A program made the position numbers and the translations under genes. Under the pieces are notes generated by a model. The model was not told where the DNA came from. It saw only the letters and a program-made list of their open reading frames with translations, and made no database searches. Of a DNA stretch of 44,164 nt, positions 2,408 through 33,573 are shown in pieces. This stretch comes from a virus. Lineage: Duplodnaviria > Caudoviricetes. Position 1 is the stretch's first letter. Every line of letters begins with the position of its first letter. The DNA lies in IMG/VR virus record IMGVR_UViG_3300017911_001227, positions 1 through 44,164 of that record; one strand, written 5' to 3'.

Positions 2408-4870
2408 CTACGCGAAGAAATATTGACTATCCAGAACCTCTTCGAGAACTAAGTCTCCGCTCTCAGGGACAGGCGGCAGCTCGATGCCCAGTTGACCCTC
2501 TAGGCTGGCCTTAAAGTCTTCTAGCCAGTTCTTCTCGCTGTACATCTGCACGAACGCTTCACGGATACCGTAGCTAAGCCTCTCAGTGTCGCAAGCGTGC
2601 GTAGCGTAGCTATCGTGTACCATGCTGAAGTGCATAGAGGGGTCAATGTCAATCAGGTGCTCTACTGTACGCATCATGTGCGCAGCGTCTAGCGCGTGAA
2701 TGAAGTTAGGCGCGATAGAGAATGACATTTTGCGGCTGTGTATCTTAGGCGTTGTGCCGTCCGCTATTGTCACTCTCAGCCTGTTACCTACCGCGTTCAA
2801 CTCTACAGATGTAAGGTTAGGTTTGCGGTAGTCCTGCACCAGCAGGAAGCCTGAAGGCGTCGTCCAGTGTATCCCTGAGCCTTCCACAGATACTATCCTA
2901 GCGCACTCTTGAAGCCACGCCATGGCCTTCTGTGCGGCTACTACTACCTGCCCTGTAGCGTTCCAGACTATCTCACCTAGGTAGCGTGCAGCGTTGTACG
3001 GCTCATTAAATGGGCAAAGTTTATCGCGCTGTAGAGGCCTCAGAGTGTCCTCCATGATCTGGTCTGCGAAGCCTTGGCGCGTGGCCCCGTACGGTAGGGT
3101 CATCACGTTTCGCTTTACAGTCTTACGCTTCATGAGCGGTAACCACGCTTGGGCTGTAGGCTCACCGCGCTGCGCTCTCACTTTCAGCTCGGCCACTGTA
3201 GCGCCCAGAACCCTACTGTACAGGTCCTGAGGCTTGTCGGCAGGCGTAAGGTTCACCGCTGAGCCACCTATAGGGTCCTTCAAGAGCGCTGAAAGGTGTT
3301 GCAATCCATTACAAGACCCGTCTAGGGCGACTGGAAGGTGAGAAACGTAGTCGTCCCCGCACTCACGCGCCCCTGCCCACTCGAAGCAGAACGCTAGGAA
3401 CTGGAAAGGCTTGTCCGCCTCCATCCAGAACCGCTCAGCGAATGGCTCCGCTGCTGCTGCGAGTATCCTAGGCTCATTGGTGAGGACCCACTCCACACGC
3501 TCGTCAAGGCTGATCTTGTCTTCGCCGTGAGTGTTAGCCCCGTGTACAGCCAGCCAGTACCCGCCCTCAGTGCCTAACGGCTTACCTGTGCCGAATAGCA
3601 GGAGACCCTTGCTAAGGTCGTCCCCTTGCGGTTTCAGGAACTTAGGCTTGTCGTAGCAACGCCCACGGAAGTCTAGGTGCTTCGGGAAGTATATTTTCTC
3701 GAAGTCCTTGTGACGCTCGGCAACCTCTATAGTCTTCGTGACTGCTAAGATTTTGCCCTTGAGCGCGTTGTTCCTGAGGTGTGCTTCCCGGGCCGCTAAT
3801 TTGTATGCGTTGCGAGCCTCTTCATTAGTAGCGATGTCGTGCGGCTTTGTAGGTAGCGGCTCCAGCTCCATGGGAGGGAGTGACTCACAACTTATACCCG
3901 CTTCACGCATACGCTGCACCACGTCCAGTACACGCTTGTTAATTTTATACGGGACTTTCTGTAGGTAATTGAGCGAGTCAAACACTCTCGGCATCTCTGT
4001 TCGGTCGGCATTTTTAATGCCATTAGTGGCATGTCTCGCCACTACCATGCGGTTACTCGTGAGAGAATAGTACCCACCTACACGTGTATCCTCCCAATCG
4101 AGGGGAGGGGCTATCATAGGGCTCAGGTTAGGCGATAGGTCAGCCAATAGGTTATCCATAGAGGTAATCTGCTGGAAGAACTGGTCACTAATCTCGTAGA
4201 GTTTCTGAGCGCGTCTCTTGCGGGTCTCTACCCGCGATGTGACTATACCCAAGGTCTCCATTGCGGCCAGAAGGAACACGCCTAAGCGCACCTTTTCCTG
4301 AGTGCCCATAGGGTCAGCCTCAGGGCCTACCATTTTCCTGTACTTCTCTAGGATGTCTGTGCTACGGTTCACCGCCCCGTGAGCCCTAGCGTTACACCGG
4401 AGGACGATTGCCTTGAACATCCCCGGGTCGGCTTTGCGCAACTGAGTAGCCGCGTACTCCCGAGCGATAGCATCGCCTATGCCGAACCCTAGCTTAGCGT
4501 GCGTAGCGTCCTTGGCTCCGCTCGAAGCTGTAAGGTCAGTCATTACTGTTAGTGCGATAGCCGCCGTAGCGGTAGGCTTTAAGAGTTTCAGGGTGCGTAT
4601 CTCCGGGGGCTTCCGGCGCACCTTTCCGTCTTCCAGTCTGGCTATTTCGTCCACAATGAGGTCAGCTAGGGGCTGGATCATCATACTGATCACCGAGCGA
4701 GCGCCTTGTGTGTAGCTGGCCCGGCCTACACCGCGTGCTTTACTGTTGCTGGCCAGATACCGTGCGCGTCCAGCATCCGCCATGTCTCTCTCATGGTTAA
4801 GTTCCATGATCATTTCTTCTTCAGTCACATTTTGTGACCTCAAGTCTGAGCTTGTCAATTCAGTCTCCAT
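2408..4870 (-). CDS. Single-subunit DNA-directed RNA polymerase (T7 gp1-like)
   Basis: Motifs DFRGR, PVALDGSCNGLQH, RKTVKRNVMTLPYG, APNFIHALDAAH and VHDS. ATG 4870 is preferred over GTG 4903. Confidence 0.98.
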   Translation of the reverse strand: METELTSSDLRSQNVTEEEMIMELNHERDMADAGRARYLASNSKARGVGRASYTQGARSVISMMIQPLADLIVDEIARLEDGKVRRKPPEIRTLKLLKPTATAAIALTVMTDLTASSGAKDATHAKLGFGIGDAIAREYAATQLRKADPGMFKAIVLRCNARAHGAVNRSTDILEKYRKMVGPEADPMGTQEKVRLGVFLLAAMETLGIVTSRVETRKRRAQKLYEISDQFFQQITSMDNLLADLSPNLSPMIAPPLDWEDTRVGGYYSLTSNRMVVARHATNGIKNADRTEMPRVFDSLNYLQKVPYKINKRVLDVVQRMREAGISCESLPPMELEPLPTKPHDIATNEEARNAYKLAAREAHLRNNALKGKILAVTKTIEVAERHKDFEKIYFPKHLDFRGRCYDKPKFLKPQGDDLSKGLLLFGTGKPLGTEGGYWLAVHGANTHGEDKISLDERVEWVLTNEPRILAAAAEPFAERFWMEADKPFQFLAFCFEWAGARECGDDYVSHLPVALDGSCNGLQHLSALLKDPIGGSAVNLTPADKPQDLYSRVLGATVAELKVRAQRGEPTAQAWLPLMKRKTVKRNVMTLPYGATRQGFADQIMEDTLRPLQRDKLCPFNEPYNAARYLGEIVWNATGQVVVAAQKAMAWLQECARIVSVEGSGIHWTTPSGFLLVQDYRKPNLTSVELNAVGNRLRVTIADGTTPKIHSRKMSFSIAPNFIHALDAAHMMRTVEHLIDIDPSMHFSMVHDSYATHACDTERLSYGIREAFVQMYSEKNWLEDFKASLEGQLGIELPPVPESGDLVLEEVLDSQYFFA

Positions 4871-5030
4871 TACGTGTATGTGTGTTGTGTGTTCTCGCAC
4901 CACCGCCCGCGCCCATTCTCTTGCTTTAGAAAGAATGGTTATAATGTCGTATATACGTATAATACCGTATATGCCTGTTGCACCTACAGAACCCGCATAA
5001 ATACGTGCGAGGGTGCATATTTTTATTATG

Positions 5031-5255: not shown

Positions 5256-6332
5256 TTAAACCTTCGCCTCTAATAGGTCACGTGCAGCGTCCATCTCGAA
5301 GGGGAACAGCTTCACATATCGAAGGGTCATCTTTATATTCTCGTGCCCTAACCATCTCTGTGTCAAGGTTAGGTCCTTAGTAAGGTTGTAAACGCGGCTT
5401 CCACATGTGTGCCGTAAAGCGTAAGGGATGAACCCTTTGTCATCCTCTAGGCCCATGCGAACCTTAGCCCAATCCCAAGCGTGCCGGATTATATCGTTAG
5501 TGGCCCACCCGAACGGCTCAGAAGTCCCGCTGCACTTAGAGTGCTGCCTGTGAAGCGCAATGTTAGCGCGTACAGTTAGCGGTACCGTGCGAGCTTGGCC
5601 GTTCTTTGTTTCGCGAACTGTTAGCCTGCGATCCACTAGGTTTGACATGTGTAAAGCTCGGGCCTCACTAGGGCGCACACCAGTATCCATAAGGAAGGTG
5701 AACAGGTCTTCAAAGTCCTCCCCGGGGCGCGAGCGCAGGGTGTTGCAATCGTACTCCTGCTTGAACAGGCGAATAAGCTCCCCGAACTCTTCATCAGTGA
5801 TCACTCTGTCCCTAGTGTTATCGCCTACTTTAGGCAGATTGAAATGCGGCACGTTCTTGACGGCACCTAGCCTAGAGTAGTGATTGAAGACCTTGGTCAA
5901 GGCGCTCGCTTTGTTGCGAATAGTGGCCGGCTTGAGGTCCCTGTCCTTCAGCTTTGTAATCCAAGCGTTCACTCTCGCTGTTGTTATGTCGTTCAAGGGC
6001 GTGTTCTCCCCGAAGTGGGCACATATCTCCTCGATCTGATATGACCGGGCCTTATCGTTAGCAGTACCAGACCAGTGTTCCTTGTGGACAACCTCAAAGG
6101 CTGTTCTGAGAGGTATACTCCCCGGAGACATTGAGCCTTGTGTGTTACCGCCTGTAAGCTCCCTGTAAGTGGACACGGGGTTACCGGCCATAAGGTCGGC
6201 CCGTACCTGAGCCTCGTACGCTCTAGCGCTATGAATGTCACAGTATACAACTTCACGGTGCCTATGCTTAACACCTGAGCGGGTTACCTGTACGGACACT
6301 TCAAGTCCGTTACCTCTAGGATTTACTGGCAT
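5256..6332 (-). CDS. int: Tyrosine integrase
   Basis: TGVRPSE (R), TKNG (K), YALRHT (HxxR variant), WLGH and MTLRY (catalytic Y); N-terminal arm-binding-like region. Confidence 0.95.
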   Translation of the reverse strand: MPVNPRGNGLEVSVQVTRSGVKHRHREVVYCDIHSARAYEAQVRADLMAGNPVSTYRELTGGNTQGSMSPGSIPLRTAFEVVHKEHWSGTANDKARSYQIEEICAHFGENTPLNDITTARVNAWITKLKDRDLKPATIRNKASALTKVFNHYSRLGAVKNVPHFNLPKVGDNTRDRVITDEEFGELIRLFKQEYDCNTLRSRPGEDFEDLFTFLMDTGVRPSEARALHMSNLVDRRLTVRETKNGQARTVPLTVRANIALHRQHSKCSGTSEPFGWATNDIIRHAWDWAKVRMGLEDDKGFIPYALRHTCGSRVYNLTKDLTLTQRWLGHENIKMTLRYVKLFPFEMDAARDLLEAKV

Positions 6333-6348
6333 GATAGTTCAATCTCCG

Positions 6349-6744
6349 TTAATCTCTGCGTACGTGTTCACAGACCCGCGCTAACAGGCCCCTACCTTTA
6401 ACACTCAAGGCCCACCGGGTGATCCTCAAGTCCACAGGGTCATCCCTGCGCTCTAGTAGCCCTAAGGACTTCCTAGAGTTCTCTGTCCTTGGCTGGCCCA
6501 CTCTGCGACCACCTAAGCGCCTGCCCCCTAGGGCCTGCGTTATGCGGGATATTGTAGGCGAGAACATACCAGTGTTATTTGATATGTCGCTCACACTAGG
6601 GGGCTCCCCGTGGTTCAGTTCGTGCTGTGCCACGTATAGAAACACTGTGGCGTAACTCACAGGCAAATCGTTCTCTATTGCCCTGAAGGAATTTAACACT
6701 AACCGTAACCGACGTATCTCCTCATTATCGCTGCTGTTTTGCAT
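6349..6744 (-). CDS. Winged-helix (MarR-like) transcriptional regulator, putative repressor
   Basis: SVSDISNNTGMFSPTISRITQAL (HTH) and GLLERRDDPVDLR..ALSVKGR (MarR wing); immediately upstream of int. Confidence 0.8.
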   Translation of the reverse strand: MQNSSDNEEIRRLRLVLNSFRAIENDLPVSYATVFLYVAQHELNHGEPPSVSDISNNTGMFSPTISRITQALGGRRLGGRRVGQPRTENSRKSLGLLERRDDPVDLRITRWALSVKGRGLLARVCEHVRRD

Positions 6745-6851: not shown

Positions 6852-6888
6852 ATACCCAAAAAACCCCCCGGGGATTGCCCGGAGGGGT
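6852..6888 (-). terminator. Intrinsic terminator, exact 37-bp duplicate of 7185-7221
   Basis: ACCCCTCCGGGCAATCCCCGGGGGGTTTTTTGGGTAT on the minus strand. Confidence 0.8.
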
Positions 6889-7184: not shown

Positions 7185-7221
7185 ATACCCAAAAAACCCC
7201 CCGGGGATTGCCCGGAGGGGT
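7185..7221 (-). terminator. Intrinsic terminator, exact duplicate of 6852-6888
   Basis: Same hairpin plus T6 tract. Confidence 0.8.
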
Positions 7222-7229
7222 TAATTAGG

Positions 7230-8102
7230 TCAGACACTAGAGGTAGTCTTGATGTTATCGTTAAGCGCGTGCATCGTGGGCTTTACTTCCTGCGGCTTAC
7301 GGGTCCGAGCGCTTGAGGGTCGTTTCCTGCGGCGCTTGGCCTGACTTGCAGCAAGTGCAGCTTCACGCGACCGTATGGCCATTGCGTGTGTGCCAATAAA
7401 CGCTATCACGATAGCCAGTGCCACAAGAACGGCAACACTAGCAGAAACAGCCTTAGGGAGTAGCCTAGGGGCCGCAGGTGGGACCCATGCCCGCCCATAT
7501 TCCCTAAGTTCCTTGAGGTCGTCCAGAGCTCTCTCTCTGTCCCTTATCAAAGGATCAGCTAGCGCATTGTAGACCATAAGGTCAGAGGTGCGCGTCTCAG
7601 GACACCAGCACGCCCTTTCAGGCATTTGCGGGATGTGTGCTAGGGCATGTTCAGCATTAGCCAGCCTGCCAGTAGCGTCCTGAGTTGTCTGAGAGATATA
7701 CGCTTCATGCGCCTCTAGTTCACTGGCGACTTTCTCGGCTCCGTAGTTCTTTTCGAACTGCCAGAAAGCCCTAGTGTTTCCCGCACCGTCCACCAAGGCG
7801 AGCCCTAGTGTTGCCACAAACAACAACGCAGCGGTGGCGTGTTGCTTATGGTGCGCCGCGTGAACTAGAGGCCCAGTAACCGCAGCGGCAGCGAGCGGGA
7901 CCCCTAGGAAAACACTGGCCAGCCCAAAGGCTAAGAACTTGCTGATTGCCCAGAAGGTAAACAGCCAGCCAATAGCCCCGAAAGCAGCGAATAGCAACGC
8001 CACGATCCACAGAATGGACAGCGTGGCGCTATAGGTGTGCGCGTCTATTGTGAGAGGTTTCTTTCTCACAGCAGAACCGCGCTTCCTGCCTTTATTAGAC
8101 AT
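7230..8102 (-). CDS. Early multi-pass membrane protein (about 4 TM segments with a soluble coiled region)
   Basis: Hydrophobic segments near the N-terminus and one near the C-terminus. The likely start is ATG 8102 (MSNK) after AAGAGAG; the ORF-track extension overlaps the ribozyme. Confidence 0.75.
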   Translation of the reverse strand: MSNKGRKRGSAVRKKPLTIDAHTYSATLSILWIVALLFAAFGAIGWLFTFWAISKFLAFGLASVFLGVPLAAAAVTGPLVHAAHHKQHATAALLFVATLGLALVDGAGNTRAFWQFEKNYGAEKVASELEAHEAYISQTTQDATGRLANAEHALAHIPQMPERACWCPETRTSDLMVYNALADPLIRDRERALDDLKELREYGRAWVPPAAPRLLPKAVSASVAVLVALAIVIAFIGTHAMAIRSREAALAASQAKRRRKRPSSARTRKPQEVKPTMHALNDNIKTTSSV

Positions 8103-8135: not shown

Positions 8136-8217
8136 TAGCCTAGTCATCATCAGTACCCATTCGGCTAGTCATGGGTAGACTATGAGAGGACCCTAAGGCC
8201 CCCTCACAGTTTCGACT
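8136..8217 (-). ncRNA. Type II hammerhead ribozyme (copy 3 in transcription order); predicted cleavage GUC^ between 8178 and 8177
   Basis: AGUC-GAA-[14-bp stem III ACUGUGAGGGGGCC/GGUCCUCUCAUAGU]-C^-[stem I UACCCAU/AUGGGUA]-CUGAUGA-U-GACU. Stem II is GACU/AGUC; loop-I UAGCC pairs with the 3' tail GGCUA. Confidence 0.92.
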
Positions 8218-8218
8218 T

Positions 8219-8755
8219 TTAAATCACTTTGAACGCGTAATATTCACCCATGCAATGCTCACTACCGTCATAGTGTGCGAAGTGGTGGCCATAACCATCT
8301 GCATCCGCGTAACCTTGCGCTATGTCTTCAATGTGAGGCAAACACGCTTCCCCTAGGGCCTCATATACATCGGCCTTTTGTAGCGCCTCAATGACCTTCA
8401 AAGGAAGCCCAGTGTGACGTGCGAGGAAACTAGCGTTGAAACTACCTAGGATATAAGTATCATTAGACAATTCTTCGGCCAGTATTGACAGAATGTCGCC
8501 CTCATGAATGAACCTATAACCGCCCGCCTCAAAGTCTGAGCTGCCACGAGATAGCTGTTCAACTAACCATAGACATTCGTCCAAATCGACTACTAGTTGG
8601 AACATCTCCTCAAGCTGTTTAGGTGTTAAGTCCAACTCTCGTATATGCTCTAAGGCTTCCGGATACATCTCAATCAAAAGATTAGTCTGCTTGTACTTGC
8701 CAGCCGCAACCAGCTTAGCTGTACCGCGTTCAATTTGTGTTTCAAGATTATTCAT
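8219..8755 (-). CDS. Acidic early hypothetical protein
   Basis: 178 aa, D/E-rich; flanked by ribozymes on both sides. Confidence 0.8.
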   Translation of the reverse strand: MNNLETQIERGTAKLVAAGKYKQTNLLIEMYPEALEHIRELDLTPKQLEEMFQLVVDLDECLWLVEQLSRGSSDFEAGGYRFIHEGDILSILAEELSNDTYILGSFNASFLARHTGLPLKVIEALQKADVYEALGEACLPHIEDIAQGYADADGYGHHFAHYDGSEHCMGEYYAFKVI

Positions 8756-8813
8756 AATCTTAAGTCTCTCTTTTAGTGTGTGTAAGTGATAGTTCGGTAA
8801 GAACGGCTTACCT

Positions 8814-8894
8814 TAGCCTAGTCATCATCAGTACCCATTCGGCTAGTCATGGGCAGACTATGAGAGGACCCTAAGGCCCCTCATAGTTTCGACT
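8814..8894 (-). ncRNA. Type II hammerhead ribozyme (copy 2); predicted cleavage between 8856 and 8855
   Basis: Same core CUGAUGA/GAAA/GUC. Substitutions relative to the other copies keep pairing (A-U for G-U in stem III, G-U for A-U in stem I), with a 1-nt bulge in distal stem III. Confidence 0.92.
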
Positions 8895-8895
8895 T

Positions 8896-9384
8896 TTAAC
8901 GGAGTGTCAACTCGTACCCATGTTTGCGCGCCATGTATACAGCGACACAATCGACCTGATCAATAGGGAACTCCCCTCCGTTATTGCTGGCATACTCCAA
9001 CTGACCGTTTATTTCACTGTCAATCAGAGCGCACCAGAACCGCGTTGTGTCAGACTGACCATAATGTTCAATCAGTTGTTGACACTGTATAGCCGCCACT
9101 TCTCTTTCACCTTCAGGTGTAAAAGGCAGATCATAGCGAATATGCACCGCGTCATGCCATGCCCGGAACGCCCAGTTGAACTCTGGGCATCCGAATATAG
9201 TATTCTCAGAAGCCCCGGACCATACCTTAATGTGGCCCTTGCTTCTTTCGTAATACTCTTTCAACTCAGCGAAGGACTGCGGAGCGTCCTCGCCTGCCGT
9301 CCATCCTGTGGCATAAGTGTTTGCCATTGTGAGAACAGCGGCGTTGAAAGTACGGGAAACGCGTGGTTTAGGTTGAAAAATCAT
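8896..9384 (-). CDS. Early hypothetical protein with HxxxH motif
   Basis: 162 aa containing FRAWHDAVH; first gene after the early promoter, flanked by ribozymes. Confidence 0.8.
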   Translation of the reverse strand: MIFQPKPRVSRTFNAAVLTMANTYATGWTAGEDAPQSFAELKEYYERSKGHIKVWSGASENTIFGCPEFNWAFRAWHDAVHIRYDLPFTPEGEREVAAIQCQQLIEHYGQSDTTRFWCALIDSEINGQLEYASNNGGEFPIDQVDCVAVYMARKHGYELTLR

Positions 9385-9437
9385 AAGATTTATCTCTCTT
9401 TGTGTGTGTGTTTGAGTTCGGTAAGAACGGCTTACCT

Positions 9438-9543
9438 TAGCCTAGTCATCATCAGTACCCATTCGGCTAGTCATGGGTAGACTATGAGAGGCCCTGAGTT
9501 CGGTAAGAACGACTTACCTTAAGGCCCCCTCACAGTTTCGACT
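9438..9543 (-). ncRNA. Type II hammerhead ribozyme (copy 1) with insertion in the stem III loop; predicted cleavage between 9480 and 9479
   Basis: Core intact; a ~25-nt module (9497-9520) replaces the UUAG loop of stem III. Confidence 0.9.
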
Positions 9544-9602: not shown

Positions 9603-9636
9603 ACGATGTCAAACAGCTGGCGGCTATCTGTCCGCC
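9603..9636 (-). promoter_or_regulatory. rrn-like antitermination element: hairpin (boxB-like) followed by boxA-like GCTGTTTGACATCGT
   Basis: GGCGG-ACAGATAG-CCGCC hairpin, then GCTGTTTGACA (compare boxA GCTCTTTAACA), just after the predicted start site. Confidence 0.6.
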
Positions 9637-9646
9637 GATGCCCATA

Positions 9647-9675
9647 GAGATAGATGAGAGGTCGCACCTTGTCAA
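9647..9675 (-). promoter_or_regulatory. Host sigma70 early promoter TTGACA-N17-TATCTC
   Basis: Perfect -35 box, 17-nt spacer, and a -10 box lacking the last T (common in Alphaproteobacteria); it points into the early genes. Confidence 0.7.
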
Positions 9676-32805: not shown

Positions 32806-33411
32806 CAGGGGTTGTTCAAACAAGGGTGCAAGCCTTGTCCCGCCCACTAAGTGGGGCAGCTACATGTTGCCATGTAGATCAGACTATATCTTCACTAGAG
32901 TGTTTTTGCAGATAGTGTATAGCACTTTGTAACCGTACCGGGTCGTCCTTCATAAGGCCCAACGCGGTGTTGCAGTTAGTACAGAGTAAGCCCCTGACCT
33001 TGCCTGTTTTATGGCAATGGTCTACAGCGAACTTTCTGAACCTCGAGCTTTCAAGTTTGGTCCTGCAAATAGAGCAGCCATGGCCTTGCGCTTTCAGAGT
33101 TTTGTGGTAGAAGGTAAAATCTACACCTAGTCTTGCAATGAGTTTCTTCTCTTGCCAGCAGGTTTTGCAATCTGTACGGAATGTTCCGGACTCAGATCGC
33201 CAGTAAAAGTGCTTTTTGTCGAGGGGTTTTTCAATCCCACACGTCTTACAAACTCTAGTGTCCGGTGTTTCAGAACACATGAGCTTTGTCCTTACGGGCG
33301 TTTTCCGCCCTAGTCGTTGAACCTACCTCCTGTTAAGTGAGGCAGGCTGCTGATTGTCTCAGAGAGAGTTTCCAGCAATTAACCAGATTTTACTCGGGCA
33401 AATCTTTAGCT
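32806..33411 (-). mobile_element. Group I self-splicing intron (606 nt) in the major capsid gene
   Basis: 5' exon ends in U and the intron ends in G. P1: exon UCGGGU pairs with IGS GCCCGA. P10: AGAUUU pairs with exon 2 AAAUCU. Core elements P AAUUGCUGGAAA, Q AAUCAGCAG, R GUUCAACGACUA, S AAGAUAUAGUC (P7 GACUA/UAGUC). Confidence 0.93.
32879..33280 (-). CDS. Intron-encoded homing endonuclease, EndoVII (His-Me finger) family
   Basis: CKTC..CKTC zinc finger, then CSIC...VDHCHKTGKVRGLLCTNCNTALG; lies between R and S, and its stop overlaps S. Confidence 0.9.
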   Translation of the reverse strand: MCSETPDTRVCKTCGIEKPLDKKHFYWRSESGTFRTDCKTCWQEKKLIARLGVDFTFYHKTLKAQGHGCSICRTKLESSRFRKFAVDHCHKTGKVRGLLCTNCNTALGLMKDDPVRLQSAIHYLQKHSSEDIV

Positions 33412-33573
33412 ACCCGAAGTGAGAGTTCGTACAGTGTGGCGGTCGCCAAATACGTTGCTCTCTTCAAAGGCGGTCATAACTTCTCCGCCATAAGTTTTGA
33501 GGAACAGGGCGCGTTCATCTACACCCTGAAGGTTCTCACCCGCACGGGCAAGAGTAAAGTTTGGTGCGGCCAT
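33412..33573 (-). CDS. Major capsid protein (gp10), exon 1; not in the ORF track
   Basis: SD AAGGAG; MAAPNFTLARAGENLQGVDERALFLKTYGGEVMTAFEESNVFGDRHTVRTLTSG matches the T7 gp10 ALFLK.F.GEV.TAF...R.I.SG motif. Confidence 0.92.

Follow-up and report, generated by a model that had tools for sequence, protein, structure and literature searches.

The early operon of a T7-like phage genome

The window, that is, the whole stretch of 44,164 nucleotides analysed here, represents a complete virus record that has terminal repeats, and its DNA is present in the seawater DNA runs of one study. The genome is that of a T7-like phage in which a T7-type single-subunit RNA polymerase (2408..4903), a tyrosine integrase (5256..6332; phrog_1, E 3e-40) and a transcription regulator (6349..6744; phrog_9665, weak MarR/IclR helix-turn-helix) are encoded on the minus strand. 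The same strand carries, in order, a candidate promoter, a leader, hammerhead 1, gene 1, hammerhead 2, gene 2, hammerhead 3 and gene 3, followed by a terminator, gene 4, an identical terminator, the regulator, the integrase and the polymerase; several ribozyme motifs thus lie around individual genes of this phage operon, all on the same strand. The placement in an early operon, already proposed in a first-pass annotation of this DNA, agrees with the early region of a T7-like phage, the polymerase, the MarR-like regulator and the integrase all lying downstream.

The candidate host promoter (9647..9675, minus strand) was recognized by eye and is absent from the computational promoter scan; it combines a perfect -35 hexamer, a 17-nt spacer and a weak -10. 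The leader that follows (9603..9636) holds a hairpin (9636-9619) and a 15-mer (9617-9603), which we take to be boxA-like and which may help the host polymerase to read through the early operon. This 15-mer agrees at 14 of 15 positions with a motif in genome G045, whose four copies form two pairs separated by 2.4 kb, one of them in an alphaproteobacterial rRNA spacer; the leaders of L042-L044 did not show it.

Gene 1 (8896..9384, minus strand) encodes a protein of 162 aa (phrog_7806) with homologues in the early regions of the relative G001 (48%) and of Caulobacter phage ERS (49%). The product of gene 2 (8219..8755, minus strand; 178 aa) is acidic, with 31 D/E against 12 K/R, and has no Pfam, PHROG or solved-structure match; its nearest predicted-structure cluster bears the automatic name 'antirestriction protein' (TM 0.66), and neither Pfam nor solved structures gave a match to the antirestriction proteins ArdA and Ocr. 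Gene 3 (7230..8102, minus strand) encodes 290 aa from an ATG at 8102, with a hydrophobic N-terminal part, and weak homologues of it are located behind hammerheads in G001 and L053. An intrinsic terminator-like hairpin with a U tract (7185..7221) follows gene 3, and an identical copy (6852..6888) follows gene 4 (7129-6899, 76 aa), both on the minus strand; the presence of identical 37-nt elements on either side of gene 4 further hints that genes were inserted through short repeats.

Other structured elements occur in the same genome. Between the integrase and the polymerase a stretch resembling the 5' half of a tRNA-Leu (5073-5031, minus strand) occupies the place where relatives have a whole tRNA-Leu, and is a candidate attachment site; a search of 401 genomes from the class to which G002 belongs did not find this tRNA-like fragment. 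A group I intron (32860-33477, minus strand; Rfam 73.7 bits) splits the major capsid gene (33573-33406 and 32847-31990) and contains an endonuclease VII open reading frame (33280-32879), and a group I intron is found in L053 as well.

Three type II hammerhead motifs and their surroundings

Three type II hammerheads lie on the minus (coding) strand, at 9543-9438, 8894-8814 and 8217-8136, the second and the third beginning one base past the stop codons of gene 1 and gene 2, respectively. Each repeat reads AGUC-GAAAC-stem III-GUC-stem I hairpin-CUGAUGA-U-GACU-A-GGCUA, and the conserved core (CUGANGA, GAAA and UH around the three-way junction) is complete in all three. One extra U follows A9, between A9 and G10.1, in every copy; stems I, II and III comprise 7, 4 and 10-12 bp, G10.1-C11.1 closing stem II. 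Loops close stems I and III, and stem II is open, which is the type II topology of Perreault et al. (2011), and the minimum-energy fold of each copy alone is a three-way junction with an open stem II, with z values of -3.28, -2.91 and -3.90 for hammerheads 1, 2 and 3 relative to 200 shuffles. In hammerhead 1 the loop I sequence UAGCC (9469-9465) is complementary to the tail GGCUA (9442-9438), and this pseudoknot between loop I and the 3' tail has five Watson-Crick pairs in all three copies, the threshold being at least 4. Cleavage is predicted at 9480/9479, 8856/8855 and 8178/8177.

The first-pass annotation had described the type II topology with its full core, the extra U, the 5-bp pseudoknot and these three cut sites, and the sequence, the folds and a structural scanner bear it out, with the cuts mapped to the same positions. 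It had also claimed that substitutions between copies preserve pairing, which needs a qualification. The stem I hairpins of the three copies are about 97% identical, and the core-side helices differ only by a G-U to A-U change in stem III and an A-U to G-U change in stem I; both keep the pair, but both are one-sided wobble changes, so the three copies alone give almost no evidence of covariation, and such evidence comes from the hammerheads of other phages. A search with the Rfam Hammerhead_II family (RF02276), which the annotation had proposed as a check, went against it: the scan of the window gave no match at the cut-off (37 bits) or at E<=10, and a dedicated search returned a single copy at 20.1 bits. 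The window copies have the same permutation and core as RF02276, and the shortfall of 20.1 against 37 bits is probably due to the long stem III, the 4-bp stem II and the extra U. Other phage loci (16 scanned) contain 31 related type II motifs that pass the same cut-off, and another set of hammerheads scoring under Rfam cut-offs is described in the available text of a preprint (bioRxiv 10.64898/2026.10.21.760802). The structural scanner found exactly these three motifs on both strands of the 44 kb and none in 60 simulated 44-kb sequences. Likewise, a covariance model built from 52 hammerheads of phages other than the window scored the three copies at 40-43 bits (40.1, 42.7 and 40.8 for hammerheads 1, 2 and 3) and gave no further match to E=1. 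The idea that one enzyme strand serves extra substrate-only sites was rejected for this window, the 14-nt word around the cut site occurring only at the three ribozymes when up to two mismatches were allowed.

A 23-nt tail motif is present in exactly three copies in the window, all at ribozymes: one downstream of hammerhead 1 (9416..9436), one downstream of hammerhead 2 (8792..8812) and one, with a single change, in the stem III loop of hammerhead 1 (9498..9518), all on the minus strand and none after hammerhead 3. It can fold either into one 6-bp hairpin compatible with the pseudoknot or into two 4-bp hairpins, one of which takes up the pseudoknot strand; the 3' product calculated without the pseudoknot has -14.3 kcal/mol in the former and -16.2 kcal/mol in the latter, and the five pairs of the pseudoknot are worth -5.5 kcal/mol as a duplex. 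In context, the cost of adopting the active fold is 6.3-6.6 kcal/mol for hammerhead 1, 1.2-4.8 for hammerhead 2 and 0.6-1.3 for hammerhead 3, in an energy model that omits the pseudoknot as well as core and tertiary contacts. Stem II of hammerhead 1 is disfavored in the full leader context, and its cost before the pseudoknot is added suggests that this ribozyme may be slow. No homologue of the tail motif was found, the searches giving one viral-contig match, away from any hammerhead, and none in metagenome contigs, so the motif offers no covariation; metagenome contigs also yielded no close relative with the ribozyme tail of the window. The tail motif may be a DNA operator. Its interpretation as a phage promoter was discarded, as there are just three copies and none ahead of late genes.

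A GU-rich stretch in the leader (9580-9535, minus strand) shows 12-nt complementarity to a CA-rich run ahead of gene 2. Judged against 500 shuffles, the pairing of this stretch with the CA-rich runs is significant for gene 3 only (2/500) and not for gene 2 (80/500) or gene 1 (192/500). In relatives a similar GU-rich stretch forms the 5' strand of stem III in a leader type III hammerhead, and pairs with a CA-rich run; the stretch in the window may therefore be what is left of a type III ribozyme that has since been lost.

Hammerheads in related and distant phages

Among 37 loci with a related polymerase, seven show 49-70% identity, two of these being fragments that lack the early region. All five close relatives in which the early region is present (49-53% RNA polymerase identity) have hammerheads in that operon, none of them on the non-coding strand: 1 in L049, 2 in L051, 4 in L050, 9 in G001 and 10 in L053, the last of which sits ahead of the integrase. 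Between these relatives and the window, stem I hairpins share only 43-50% identity, which indicates that the slot is conserved and the sequence is not. Within a genome, stem I identity is 87% in L050 and falls to 54-59% in G001 and L053 with the core intact in all copies, which points to selection on catalysis. In G001, the homologues of gene 1 and gene 3 are placed behind ribozymes of its own. Genes 1 and 2 do not need a hammerhead, since of the 80 loci that contain a gene 2 homologue a single one has a hammerhead, and the gene 1 homologue of Caulobacter phage ERS has none.

Several variants of the early slot were observed. In G001 (C1:400-4300) and the early region of L053, 17 type II copies lack the pseudoknot between loop I and the tail by the scanner test, and the hammerheads of these two genomes may use another tertiary contact. 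In L051, a 77-nt intergenic hairpin motif occurs in three copies (4916-4992, 6053-6129 and 6462-6538) with paired changes between them; it occupies slots that hold hammerheads in relatives and has no Rfam match at E<=2. L042 (~807-880) and L043 (~2201-2270) have in common a stretch that looks structured; it lies upstream of the type III hammerhead of the leader and has no Rfam match at the cut-off.

Hammerheads were also found in the early stretches of three of eight named integrase-bearing Autographiviridae records, all three being cultured Rhizobium phages: RHEph01 has a type III and a type II hammerhead, RHph_I20 a type III and two type II, and vB_RleA_TRX32-1 a single type II, with the extra nucleotide in every type II copy. 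The early stretches analysed from Lo5R7ANS, LUZ100, HTVC309P, CRP-403 and uvMED S28-C10 contain none. In each of the seven records that have a type III hammerhead it is the most upstream ribozyme, and type II hammerheads occupy the later gaps, an order that would follow from the use of type II at junctions whose two products must each end in a hairpin. The window has no type III, and a type II takes the first place. The distant T7-like loci (461 kb, many of these loci without an early region) yielded one type I motif, a hammerhead with an extra nucleotide that lies upstream of the polymerase in L070 (~358-412).

Scanning viral contigs with a pattern gave 38 loci, two pairs of which overlap or are near-duplicates; the scanner found at least one motif in 33 of the 38 and two to eight in 15. 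The pseudoknot has at least four pairs in 58 of 64 distinct type II motifs, as against 30% (maximum 45%) when tails were swapped between loci. In an alignment of 52 sequences, 93% of cells are paired and 15 of 17 pairs show two-sided changes, pair counts that are inflated by kinship and that compare with only 29-46% paired in slid controls; the pseudoknot helix itself is 82% paired, with four of its five pairs covarying. The extra nucleotide is found in 54 of the 64 motifs, a figure biased by the search pattern. When these 64 are combined with 24 from the window and its relatives, 53 of the 88 type II motifs begin -3 to +6 nt from an upstream stop codon (random positions, 3.5%) and 71 end at most 45 nt before a start codon with a Shine-Dalgarno-like run (random, 19%). 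At one locus, L008, a Twister-P5 ribozyme (4448-4508) is adjacent to two type II hammerheads.

Predicted processing of the early transcript and its precedents

The window motifs very probably self-cleave. They lie between a stop codon and the ribosome-binding region of the next gene, and based on this position and on the predicted product ends we hypothesize that the cuts serve to divide the early transcript, in the manner of RNase III in T7, so that each mRNA carries one gene and every new end has a hairpin; on balance, this is the purpose that we favor. The nascent early transcript would be cut co-transcriptionally before each of the first three early genes, to give a leader of ~160 nt (161) and one-gene mRNAs of 624 nt, 678 nt and, to the terminator, ~990 nt. 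Each upstream product would end in stem III with a cyclic phosphate, and each downstream product would begin flush with stem I with a 5'-OH, followed by an unstructured CA-rich run, a purine-rich site and the start codon. The new ends would shield the pieces from host nucleases, and each ribosome-binding site would be freed from its upstream context for quick synthesis of early proteins, the outcome being a counterpart, made of RNA only, to what RNase III does to the early transcript of T7. Host nucleases would be hindered by a 5'-OH, a cyclic phosphate and terminal hairpins, a protection for which our literature search found no supporting text; against this purpose, a 5'-OH end is open to degradation in hosts that have RNase J. 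Hammerhead and RNase III cleavage also differ in end chemistry. Candidate RNase III sites are found elsewhere in the genome, namely a 34-bp hairpin directly after the integrase stop codon (5239-5162, minus strand; -57 kcal/mol) and long hairpins around late genes (12491-12406 and 33795-33740), so an absence of RNase III does not account for the ribozymes. Counting long hairpins proved too noisy to show whether RNase III sites take the place of ribozymes in distant phages.

The same cuts could have the opposite effect on the early mRNA, shortening its life or uncoupling it from the polymerase, as an early shut-off after takeover by the phage polymerase or as a means of keeping a prophage silent. 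Ribozyme cleavage triggers decay via RNase J in glmS, a precedent that, with the integrase and the regulator encoded downstream, speaks for this explanation; nevertheless we consider it unlikely, since the type II geometry puts a hairpin at both new ends, every cut lies upstream of an intact ribosome-binding region and, according to the available text of PMC6206723, a hammerhead ahead of a gene raised expression in E. coli. It is equally doubtful that the repeats act mainly as DNA, spread by duplication or conversion and used as joints for the swapping of early genes, with cleavage tolerated or secondary. The near-identity of stem I within the window (97%) and within L050 (87%), as opposed to 43-50% between the window and other genomes, and the variable gene sets between the ribozymes of relatives would be accounted for in this way, but the copies of G001 and L053 have diverged to 54-59% identity with the core always kept, and no gene-skipping joint was found in the contigs of two DNA runs, one of them possibly the source of the window. 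Each segment between two ribozymes comprises one whole gene with its ribosome-binding region, and the 5'-OH and cyclic phosphate ends would suit ligation into circular mRNAs of 624 and 678 nt. Such circles are the least credible of the alternatives, given that every gene retains its stop codon and that, in the text available from Perreault et al. (PMC3088659), no circular or spliced products of tandem hammerheads were found. The same text reports that 4 of 18 consensus hammerheads failed to cleave when tested, which, along with the scores below the Rfam cut-off, would fit inactive or functionless relics; this is very improbable, as core, stems and pseudoknot are intact in all three copies, the same slot is filled in all five close relatives and 31 related motifs exceed the Rfam cut-off.

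Another alternative concerns the control of cleavage. In hammerheads 1 and 2 the tail, and in hammerhead 1 also the leader, might compete with the pseudoknot and stem II and make cleavage conditional, hammerhead 3 being constitutive; cleavage would then be set by a protein, by translation or by the speed of transcription, and could tune early output, for instance in the choice between lysis and lysogeny. The AGCC of the tail is able to pair with the pseudoknot strand, the active-fold cost falls from hammerhead 1 to 2 to 3, and the only three copies of the tail motif are all at ribozymes. Even so, we judge conditional cleavage improbable, because the motif lacks homologues and hence covariation, the energies leave out the pseudoknot and core contacts, and recent duplication explains the tail copies equally well; the modeled tail alternatives allow a switch but do not demonstrate one. 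The preferred reading of one-gene mRNAs can be extended to a history in which a branch of temperate T7-like phages moved early processing from host RNase III to ribozymes of its own, type III opening the first gene and type II capping both sides of later junctions, with two of the three ribozymes in the window switchable by a tail that competes with the pseudoknot. This full scheme is speculative and, as a whole, rather unlikely; if true, it would provide natural regulated hammerheads governing early gene output.

The layout itself is already known from prophages since 2011. The available text of Perreault et al. (PMC3088659) describes type II hammerheads with the loop I/tail pseudoknot in prophage clusters that flank single genes. 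Three arrangements in tandem cleaved in vitro, and one of them, from Agrobacterium tumefaciens, in E. coli too. The window shares with these clusters the type II topology, the pseudoknot and the spacing, three ribozymes in ~2 kb with one per gene junction, and differs in being a complete T7-like phage genome from seawater with near-identical copies, the extra U and the 23-nt tail motif. According to the same source the triple array of Agrobacterium tumefaciens adjoins ardA, marR and an integrase; the window array is likewise near a marR-like gene and an integrase, whereas its gene 2 has no ardA match by Pfam or solved structures. An extra nucleotide at A9/G10.1 is also known, from viroids: with a U at that point, cleavage by a viroid hammerhead rose 3-4-fold, as stated in the text seen of a review (PMC3705267), where the insertion point is the same but the permutation and the context, viroid replication, are different. 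The crystallized 'PK hammerhead' (PMC11300833), having a pistol-like topology in the text available, was rejected as the same motif.

In RiboJ, the text seen of PMC6206723 reports that a hammerhead and a hairpin before the gene raised mRNA ~2-fold and protein 2-10-fold in E. coli. The window likewise has a hammerhead and then the 23-nt hairpin/motif before a ribosome-binding site, an analogy of layout only, RiboJ having been derived by engineering from the ribozyme of a plant satellite RNA. The consulted part of a 2017 review (PMC6155905) described what prokaryotic hammerheads do as an open question, and our literature search, which left out most subscription journals, found no paper joining hammerhead ribozymes with Autographiviridae. 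What is added here is the link to temperate T7-like phages, the pattern of type III first, and cultured phages in which function is testable; core-dead mutants of RHEph01, RHph_I20 or vB_RleA_TRX32-1 could settle the purpose of the cuts. The closest functional parallel is the early RNA of T7, in which, according to the available text of PMC4858673, RNase III makes five cuts that are needed for optimal translation and are not essential. Those sites occupy the same place, in an early operon that the host transcribes and that precedes the phage polymerase, and the predicted result is shared as well, namely mono- or dicistronic mRNAs produced by cutting as transcription proceeds; the window ribozymes would need no protein enzyme, and the two probably share a purpose. 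The hammerheads are thus placed in the slot where T7 has RNase III sites, and this slot is kept among relatives while the sequence of the ribozyme changes.
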